Shown here piece by piece: positions 24,653 through 25,069 of a DNA stretch of 64,000 nt; position 1 is the first letter of the stretch, and the number at the start of each line of letters is the position of its first letter. Both the position numbers and the translations under genes were made by a program. The notes below the pieces were generated by a model that was given only the letters and a program-made list of their open reading frames with translations, was not told where the DNA came from and searched no databases. Source of the stretch: Escherichia coli (GTDB lineage: Bacteria > Pseudomonadota > Gammaproteobacteria > Enterobacterales > Enterobacteriaceae); assembly GCF_030384885.1 (NCBI RefSeq), contig NZ_CP128613.1; one strand, written 5' to 3'.

Positions 24653-24767
24653 GTAAATGAGTTAAAGAGACTGAACCCGCTCACAGAGCTTTGCTTCGTT
24701 TTATACGTCCTACAGCACCAAACTCATGGCGTCGGTCTCGGCGTTGCAAGGCTATCAGAACTTGAAA

Positions 24768-24910
24768 TCATGATCGATATAAAAGATCGATAATTGCTTA
24801 TTGATAGATTCTAACGATTAAACAGATGATATCGATCGGCAATTAATTGTTATTATCGATCGAATATCAACTTATGATAGCTGCAAGCTATCATGTGGTC
24901 GTTTTTGATC
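24768..24910. promoter_or_regulatory. GATC / ATCGATC palindrome cluster in divergent promoter region
   Basis: Five GATC sites in about 140 bp, four within ATCGATC contexts; adjacent 19 bp palindrome TGATAGCTGCAAGCTATCA (24875-24893). Confidence 0.5.
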
Positions 24911-25069
24911 GTTTTAAACGATATGACGAGACGCTAAAAGAATTGAATCCTATCAATTGGTTAAGCGGTGGTTTTGCCATGTGATATCAGCCGGATCCCG
25001 CAACAACTCAAGCCCTGACCGGATTAGGTCAAAAATTTAGGCACTTTGATTATCAGGATGGACAAGCAG

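Follow-up and report, generated by a model that had tools for sequence, protein, structure and literature searches.

An array of phased OxyR-type half-sites and Dam sites, a likely epigenetic switch, upstream of the SEN1982-like lipoprotein gene of a ROD21-type island in Escherichia coli

To our knowledge, only three families of OxyR/Dam switch have been well characterised, namely agn43, gtr and opvAB, and each of them is instructive on how the geometry of binding sites sets switching rates. At agn43 a single OxyR tetramer site is accompanied by three GATC sites, and OxyR acts there solely as a repressor. In gtr the three half-sites A, B and C are bound alternately by OxyR as AB or BC, and methylation blocks binding (Broadbent et al. 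2010, PMC2909390). The four half-sites of opvAB, with centres at -148, -116, -75 and -43, have scores of 10, 8, 10 and 7, and it is the imperfect ones that carry GATC (Cota et al. 2016, PMC4856963). Here we describe an array of OxyR-type half-sites and GATC sites in the intergenic region 24653-25069 of a 64,000-nucleotide stretch of E. coli DNA (NCBI RefSeq assembly GCF_030384885.1, contig NZ_CP128613.1), referred to below as the window. The core of this region (24766-24977) appears to be the cis-regulatory region of a SEN1982-like lipoprotein gene, and the reading that we favour, with moderate confidence, is that it works as a Dam/OxyR epigenetic (phase-variation) switch. As judged from its sequence, the array is probably a new and widespread member of this switch class, with a hybrid gtr/opvAB architecture.

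Half-sites were scored against the OxyR consensus ATAGnTnnnAnCTAT, which is 15 bp long and has ten scored and five free positions. The half-sites (H) and GATC sites of the array, in window coordinates, are the following.

24772-24775: GATC1, at the left end of H0; located about -304 from the ATG in most relatives and replaced by CAATTG in one subgroup
24773-24787: H0, ATCGATATAAAAGAT, 7/10, bracketed by GATC1 and GATC2; 8/10 as ATCGATTAAAACGAT in relatives with a two-gene operon
24785-24788: GATC2, at the right end of H0, 13 bp from GATC1
24804-24818: H1, ATAGATTCTAACGAT, 9/10, GATC-free; starts 31 bp past H0 in nearly all loci
24834-24837: GATC3 (TATCGATCGG), between H1 and H3, in no strong half-site; conserved
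24846-24860: H3, ATTGTTATTATCGAT, 8/10, its right end entering GATC4; consensus positions 98% conserved
24858-24861: GATC4, at the right end of H3
24877-24891: H4, ATAGCTGCAAGCTAT, 10/10, GATC-free, core of the inverted repeat 24875-24893; predicted shared anchor
24907-24910: GATC5, at the left end of H5
24908-24922: H5, ATCGTTTTAAACGAT, 8/10, starting 31-32 bp past H4; consensus positions 100% conserved
24939-24953: H6 (possible), AGAATTGAATCCTAT, 7/10, GATC-free; 8/10 in most relatives

Two half-sites scoring at least 7/10 are the minimum for this class of switch, and six were found (H0 7, H1 9, H3 8, H4 10, H5 8 and H6 7). Their starts are 31, 42, 31, 31 and 31 bp apart in the window from H0 to H6, and the same steps measured 31, 42-44, 31 (32), 31 (32) and 31 bp in 46 distinct cores, which fits the spacing of reduced OxyR (starts about 32 bp apart on one face of the DNA). 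GATC sites lie within or at the ends of some of the half-sites, H0, H3 and H5 bearing GATC while H1, H4 and H6 are free of it. The only match to ATAGnTnnnAnCTAT without a mismatch in the 64 kb was H4. At a score of at least 8/10 the window contained 39 matches; five of them lay inside 160 bp, where 0.10-0.16 were expected, and in 5000 Markov-shuffled versions of the core five such matches were never reached. Pairs of these matches with starts 30-32 bp apart occurred in only two places in the whole window, at 24846/24877 (H3-H4) and at 24877/24908 (H4-H5).

A detector was then built from the pattern of a GATC-bearing half-site, 31/32 bp, a strong half-site, 31/32 bp and a second GATC-bearing half-site. 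It gave one match in the 64-kb window (24846-24922), one in the 41.7-kb genome of P22, located in the gtr region, and one in a 37.5-kb E. coli locus, located at the homologous site. Among the related loci, 50 had the H3-H4-H5 triple, each in one place.

A sequence-only reading of this DNA had drawn attention to five Dam sites within about 140 bp and to a perfect 19-bp palindrome beside them. The five sites were confirmed: the GATC starts of the intergenic region (24772, 24785, 24834, 24858 and 24907) all fall within 139 bp, with steps of 13, 49, 24 and 49 bp, and form the densest GATC stretch per 140 bp in the window. Four of them had been described as ATCGATC; this holds on the plus strand for two (24831 and 24855), the other two being the reverse complement GATCGAT (24772 and 24785), and read as the 8-mer TATCGATC the four sites are orientated <- <- -> ->. 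The supposed palindrome is present at 24875-24893 as the inverted repeat TGATAGCTGCAAGCTATCA, which has 8-bp arms around a non-symmetric 3-bp centre (GCA) and is not a strict palindrome. An additional sixth GATC at 24994 (GGATCC) was kept in close relatives only.

The lipoprotein family downstream of the array is distributed over the Enterobacterales, and its loci were used to follow the conservation of the array. The sample comprised 41 loci from a scan of one genome per species and 11 further loci from a DNA-pattern scan of viral contigs, to which loci of Salmonella Enteritidis and Klebsiella pneumoniae were added through exact-protein look-ups. The GATC sites were found at -304, -291, -242, -217 and -168 from the start codon in the relatives, compared to -298, -285, -236, -212 and -163 in the window. 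These offsets were fixed in Yersinia, Brenneria, Dickeya, Pectobacterium, Klebsiella, Cedecea, Mangrovibacter, Samsonia and others, although the lipoproteins were only 50-60% identical. The full array was also present upstream of SEN1982 in ROD21 of S. Enteritidis. Within each half-site, conservation across the 46 distinct cores was 92-100% at the ten consensus positions and 50-84% at the five free ones; the arms of H4 were 96% and its centre 50% conserved, with a median H4 score of 10/10. The suboptimal ATCG/CGAT ends of the half-sites, which are the source of the GATCs, were retained with no shift to ATAG/CTAT. Identity of the core to the window was 66-77%, where third positions of the coding sequences reached about 45% and the remaining intergenic DNA 20-55%, and the array was thus better conserved than the adjacent coding sequence. 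No hidden small open reading frame was found in the core: all six frames contained stops in 30 of 30 aligned loci, and no 3-bp periodicity was detected.

In some loci the array was absent or decayed. The lipoprotein gene was present and the array absent in Serratia marcescens UMH3 (locus L007, 2456-3000) and in Erwinia sp. OLFS4. In Candidatus Sodalis endolongispinus (L004) the protein was 86% identical, whereas the core was only 56% identical and two GATCs were gone. The arrays of L040, L041 and L036, which have a truncated lipoprotein gene or a symbiont host, were decayed, with GATCs lost and H4 degraded. A subgroup that seemed to have one GATC was considered as switch-free and this was rejected, the array being located about 720 bp upstream, before an extra lipoprotein gene. 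In the array-free loci L007 and L006 a divergent gene for an XRE-type helix-turn-helix protein lies upstream of the lipoprotein gene, and regulation may be of another kind there.

The cluster had been placed between divergent membrane-protein and lipoprotein genes, and this arrangement was borne out by a DUF4755 gene on the minus strand and a gene with an LAGC lipobox on the plus strand.

25070-25600, plus strand: gene for a SEN1982-like lipoprotein (176 aa, lipobox LAGC), the constant target downstream of the array
24164-24652, minus strand: gene for a DUF4755 membrane-anchored protein (SEN1983-like) with a hydrophobic N-terminus; the variable left neighbour
23755-24132, minus strand: SEN1984-like (BamE-like) lipoprotein gene, downstream of the DUF4755 gene

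The orientation of the array and its distance to the first right-hand gene were constant (162-168 bp from GATC5 to the ATG). In 12 loci (L010, L015, L016, L028, L030, L039, L045, L046, L048, L050, L052 and L054) the array was followed by a gene for a different lipoprotein of 193 aa (MNKSIALSL...LSGC) and then by the SEN1982-like gene. On the left side the neighbours were the DUF4755 and BamE-like genes, the BamE-like gene alone, or neither. Since the right side is constant and the left neighbour varies, the constant target is taken to be the rightward lipoprotein operon, and for the same reason control of the left-hand DUF4755 gene by the array seems doubtful. The lipoprotein matched no Pfam or NCBIfam family apart from its signal peptide. 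Structural matches to cystatin and NTF2-like folds were rejected as too weak for naming a function (Z <= 7.4, with an AlphaFold model of moderate quality, pLDDT 63).

Candidate promoter elements of the region are as follows.

24923-24951, plus strand: candidate rightward promoter with -35 ATGACG (24923-24928), a 17-bp spacer and -10 AATCCT (24946-24951); predicted start about 24958
24936-24964: invariant block holding the possible H6 and a perfect IHF consensus, TATCAATTGGTTA (24951-24963), with an A/T-rich tract before it
24749-24777, minus strand: candidate leftward promoter of the ROD21-type arrangement, with -35 TCGATC (24772-24777, identical to GATC1), 17 bp and an extended -10 TGaTAGCCT (24749-24757)

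The rightward candidate was the sole plus-strand candidate at the same position in all relatives, and GATATGACG with the -35 was invariant. Its score was weak, as expected for an activator-dependent promoter, and H5 lies directly upstream of its -35. Measured from the predicted start, the half-site centres would be at about -43 (H5), -74 (H4), -105 (H3), -147 (H1) and -178 (H0). The leftward candidate was not kept in relatives with other left neighbours. A sigma-54 promoter near 25040 was rejected, as the -12 GC is absent from the sequence and the motif is not conserved.

Several other elements were seen in the same DNA. The perfect IHF consensus falls in the most invariant block of the intergenic region, where it overlaps both the -10 and the start predicted for the lipoprotein promoter. 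In 25 relatives this block also contains a promoter-like pair on the minus strand, TTAACC-17-TATTTT. An exact copy of the H-NS high-affinity motif TCGATAAATT was found about -289 from the lipoprotein ATG in L021, L025, L029, L032, L034, L035 and L037, and the window has TCGATAATTG at 24787-24796.

The gene pair belongs to a module of a low-GC island (about 11.9-34.3 kb of the window) that adjoins tRNA-Asn and tRNA-Ser genes (10.7-11.9 kb). The flanking chromosome is that of E. coli; its yedA-dcm-vsr segment showed 100% identity with strain 2013C-4282, and nearly all the other complete genomes matched it at 95-99%. When the island cargo was analyzed with Pfam, a P4-type integrase, a MobQ relaxase, PilS and PilV type IV pilus genes and a TIR protein were identified. 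Furthermore, the island carries an H-NS paralogue (16894-17298), a DUF4756 protein, a RepL-like protein (18127-18684) and a Thoeris defence pair. The features looked for in ROD21/EARL islands were all found, namely the P4-type integrase, the MobQ relaxase, type IV pilin genes, the H-NS paralogue, the SEN1982-84 module and a tRNA gene, and the island gene set is that of S. Enteritidis ROD21 and the EARL island family. The gene order given in the ROD21 papers is SEN1982 (lipoprotein), SEN1983 (pseudogene) and SEN1984 (BamE-like), and the NCBI names of the E. coli homologues are 'SEN1982 family lipoprotein', 'DUF4755' and 'SEN1984 family lipoprotein'. The module was present in 546 of 5426 complete E. 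coli genomes.

Among the known switches, gtr has a centre similar to that of the array. Upstream of gtrA in P22 we read ATCGGTAACAACGAT (8/10, two GATC), ATAGATAAAAACTAT (10/10) and ATCGCTTGTATCGAT (8/10, two GATC), with starts 32 bp apart. The array has the same A/B/C layout, with a GATC-free 10/10 centre between two 8/10 sites of the form ATCG...CGAT that bear GATC, at steps of about 32 bp, and a single detector recovers both. The 13-bp GATC pair around H0 has the geometry of gtr GATC1/2 and GATC3/4, which belong to half-sites A and C, and the candidate leftward promoter is spaced exactly like the gtr promoter of P22, TATCGATC-N14-TGnTAnnnT. In contrast to the outer gtr sites with two GATCs each, H3 and H5 bear one each, and the steps are mostly 31 bp instead of 32 bp. 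The array also has two to three extra half-sites (H0, H1 and possibly H6) and a fifth GATC outside the half-sites. Its proximal half-site abuts the predicted -35 and does not overlap it, and the genes served are for lipoproteins rather than glycosyltransferases.

The extended, one-face arrangement resembles opvAB, where perfect GATC-free sites likewise alternate with imperfect GATC-bearing ones. The steps are 32/41/32 bp in opvAB and 31/42/31(/31) bp in the array. If the predicted promoter is right, the proximal imperfect site (D in opvAB) would lie just upstream of the -35 with its centre at -43 in both. GATC3 of the array lies outside the half-sites, as do GATC1 and GATC3 of opvAB with respect to the OxyR-binding sites. 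The two differ in the number of half-sites (four in opvAB, five or six in the array) and in the order of the 31- and 42-bp steps relative to the promoter. Moreover, opvAB is confined to Salmonella, whereas more than 20 genera have the array, which is carried by a mobile island.

In agn43 (flu) of E. coli K-12, ATAGAATAAAACGAT and ATCGTTTATATCGAT score 8/10 each and lie 32 bp apart, with three GATCs at their ends. The words TATCGATCG are common to the array and the agn43 operator, and both contain an ATCG...CGAT half-site with GATC at both ends. Unlike the array, agn43 lacks both a perfect anchor half-site and alternative registers. The sequence-only reading had likened the cluster to Dam switches such as pap and agn43. 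The agn43 comparison, with OxyR, holds up in the half-sites and their spacing, but the pap comparison, with Lrp, fails for want of the features of that switch. A GATC cluster upstream of a surface-protein gene and one CGATCTTTT word, at GATC2 in the window, are shared with pap; the array lacks GATC boxes 102 bp apart, and the CGATCTTTT word was not conserved in the relatives. The search for Lrp sites in the region gave a single consensus match with three mismatches, no more than the window-wide rate predicts, and neither fimbrial nor regulator genes were found beside the array, which is flanked by the lipoprotein, DUF4755 and Thoeris genes. A pap-type Dam/Lrp switch was therefore rejected on the spacings of 13, 49, 24 and 49 bp, the lack of clear Lrp sites and the lack of a neighbouring regulator.

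We propose that the array would work as follows. Reduced OxyR, which we infer to be the binder, would bind pairs of 15-bp half-sites with starts 31-32 bp apart. H4 would be the shared anchor, and its partner would be either the GATC4-bearing H3 or the GATC5-bearing H5, the latter adjoining the predicted -35; H5 might also pair with H6. The GATC of the occupied partner would be shielded from Dam, while the free partner would become methylated and then exclude OxyR, so that binding and methylation would be mutually exclusive at the half-site GATCs. Because one partner would be protected and the other methylated, the register would be inherited after replication. One register would activate the putative promoter and the other would leave it silent or blocked, and expression would then be bistable, giving ON and OFF lineages. 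Further registers might be provided by H0 (GATC1 and GATC2) with H1, by GATC3 and by the possible H6 and IHF site over the core promoter, as in opvAB. As H3 and H5 score equally (8/10), fairly balanced switching is predicted by the argument drawn from gtr versus opvAB (PMC4856963).

An extended form of this scheme is conceivable, and we put it forward as a doubtful suggestion. The six phased half-sites and five GATCs would form a multi-register switch with more than two heritable methylation states, generating island-borne lipoprotein variation in more than 20 Enterobacterales genera. On islands of the ROD21 type the switch would be bidirectional, with the DUF4755/BamE-like operon in the opposite phase via H0 over the leftward -35. 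If true, the multi-register array would be the most widely distributed Dam/OxyR switch known, and lineages would differ in the envelope lipoproteins of a mobilisable pathogenicity island. The array-bearing islands occur in S. Enteritidis, K. pneumoniae and E. coli as well as in the plant pathogens Pectobacterium, Dickeya and Brenneria.

Several observations weigh against a Dam/OxyR switch. The GATC count alone is within chance: by Poisson expectation about 0.1 windows with five GATCs per 140 bp would occur per 64 kb, and at least five per 140 bp were reached in 47 (23%) of 200 shuffled versions of the window (first-order Markov). The motif grammar does exceed chance, and so does the conservation across genera of each GATC at its fixed offset; it is on these, not on the count, that a chance cluster was dismissed. 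In addition, H0 scored only 6-8/10 across the loci and GATC3 lies in no good half-site. The weak predicted promoter is overlapped by the invariant block containing the IHF site, so that either register could be the ON state. The step was mostly 31 bp across the loci, compared to 32 bp in gtr, agn43 and opvAB. Finally, the T-N11-A dyad is generic for LysR-type regulators, and another such regulator or an island-encoded factor could bind.

The last two points lead to the alternative of a different binder, either a second regulator of the LysR type (HdfR or LeuO, for example) or an island winged-helix protein (RepL/SEN1990-like), with a Dam effect or none; the layout would then be OxyR-like without OxyR. 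The array was found only with ROD21-like islands, which encode the RepL-like protein and the H-NS paralogue and could thus supply such a factor. However, H4 scored 10/10 against the specific OxyR consensus in most of the 46 distinct cores, conserved and free positions followed that consensus, and the OxyR-consensus detector recovered the proven gtr site as its sole match in P22. OxyR and Dam are present in all of the more than 20 genera that host the array. With an anchor that scores 10/10 and a conservation that follows the consensus, OxyR is a more parsimonious binder than a different LysR-type or island-encoded protein, and we regard the latter as unlikely.

It seems quite unlikely that the core is an ordinary OxyR promoter of the oxidative-stress type, with no heritable switching and with GATCs that are by-products of the half-site sequence. 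Such a promoter would account for the presence of OxyR half-sites, and part of the ROD21 literature describes excision and gene expression of the island that respond to conditions inside phagocytes. The starts are, however, 31-32 bp apart, a spacing ascribed to reduced OxyR in phase-variation switches (PMC2909390, PMC4856963), and no conserved pair was found at 22 bp, the spacing of contiguous sites for the oxidised form. Three alternative overlapping registers on one anchor and GATC-creating consensus mismatches kept in every lineage also argue for the Dam/OxyR switch rather than a stress promoter.

We consider it very unlikely that the region is mainly a site for the nucleoid proteins H-NS, SeqA or IHF that silences an AT-rich island promoter, or an origin from which the excised island would replicate or be transferred. 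The perfect IHF consensus fits this possibility, as do the island-encoded H-NS paralogue, relaxase and RepL-like protein and the exact H-NS motif that overlaps GATC2 in 7 of 30 relatives; that motif was not conserved in most loci. Degenerate AT-rich binding would leave 15-bp dyads with free centres at a fixed 31-bp phasing unexplained, and the array is tied by orientation and distance to the start codon of the lipoprotein operon. No DnaA box with one mismatch or fewer was found in the intergenic region and its repeats are dyads tied to a gene start, unlike the DnaA boxes, AT-rich unwinding element and iterons of an oriC/oriV-type GATC cluster. As an oriT, the conserved inverted repeat at 28483-28509, directly upstream of mobA, is the better candidate. 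As accessory factors of the Dam/OxyR switch, H-NS, IHF and SeqA may nevertheless take part. An RNA element, in which the inverted repeat and the T-run after it would make up an intrinsic terminator or a hairpin of the 5' leader, is the least probable explanation and can be set aside: a terminator scan flagged 24873-24895 followed by TGGTCGTTTT and the fold reached -14.4 kcal/mol (z = -3.0), but the stem has just three G-C pairs, its arms are invariant with no compensatory changes, the variants ATATATTTTAACTAT or ATAAATTAAAACTAT disrupt pairing on one side only, the core had no Rfam match at E <= 1, and a hairpin would not explain the same dyad form occurring five times at 31-bp phasing.

Full-text literature searches returned no report of Dam/OxyR control, undermethylated GATCs or phase variation at SEN1982-84, c2401 (uropathogenic E. 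coli CFT073) or EARL islands, and no methylome or expression data on ON/OFF states were found for the array locus. A paper on Dam in uropathogenic E. coli does not include the locus, and a search on c2401 gave unrelated papers only. According to the ROD21/EARL papers, SEN1982 is a lipoprotein needed for systemic (organ) colonisation by S. Enteritidis, and its expression was measured in bulk; phase-variable expression of SEN1982, if true, would alter the reading of these bulk data. The array would then represent a fourth OxyR/Dam family, in which an A/B/C triple of the gtr kind is joined to upstream sites like those of opvAB, and an island-carried switch that has spread well beyond Salmonella and E. 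coli.

Other features of the island were also identified. The Thoeris pair lies directly left of the SEN1982-84 module and is made up of a SIR2+STALD protein resembling ThsA (21608-23077) and a TIR protein resembling ThsB (23094-23705); the K. pneumoniae loci L058-L060 also have this pair beside the module. Further defence-like cargo includes a CAP12/Pycsar-type TIR-domain protein by the integrase and a NACHT-domain ATPase (31967-32797 and 14832-16682). The candidate oriT, just upstream of the MobQ relaxase gene, is formed by the inverted repeat CCTATACACTGC-tac-GCAGTGTGTGGG (mobA strand), and its DNA seems to be conserved in L046, as spurious open reading frames that span it in the two loci give similar peptides. 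In the chromosome flanking the island, Rfam matches were found for EFASI RNA, rseX and DsrA at 10078-10207, 48079-48168 and 56504-56590.

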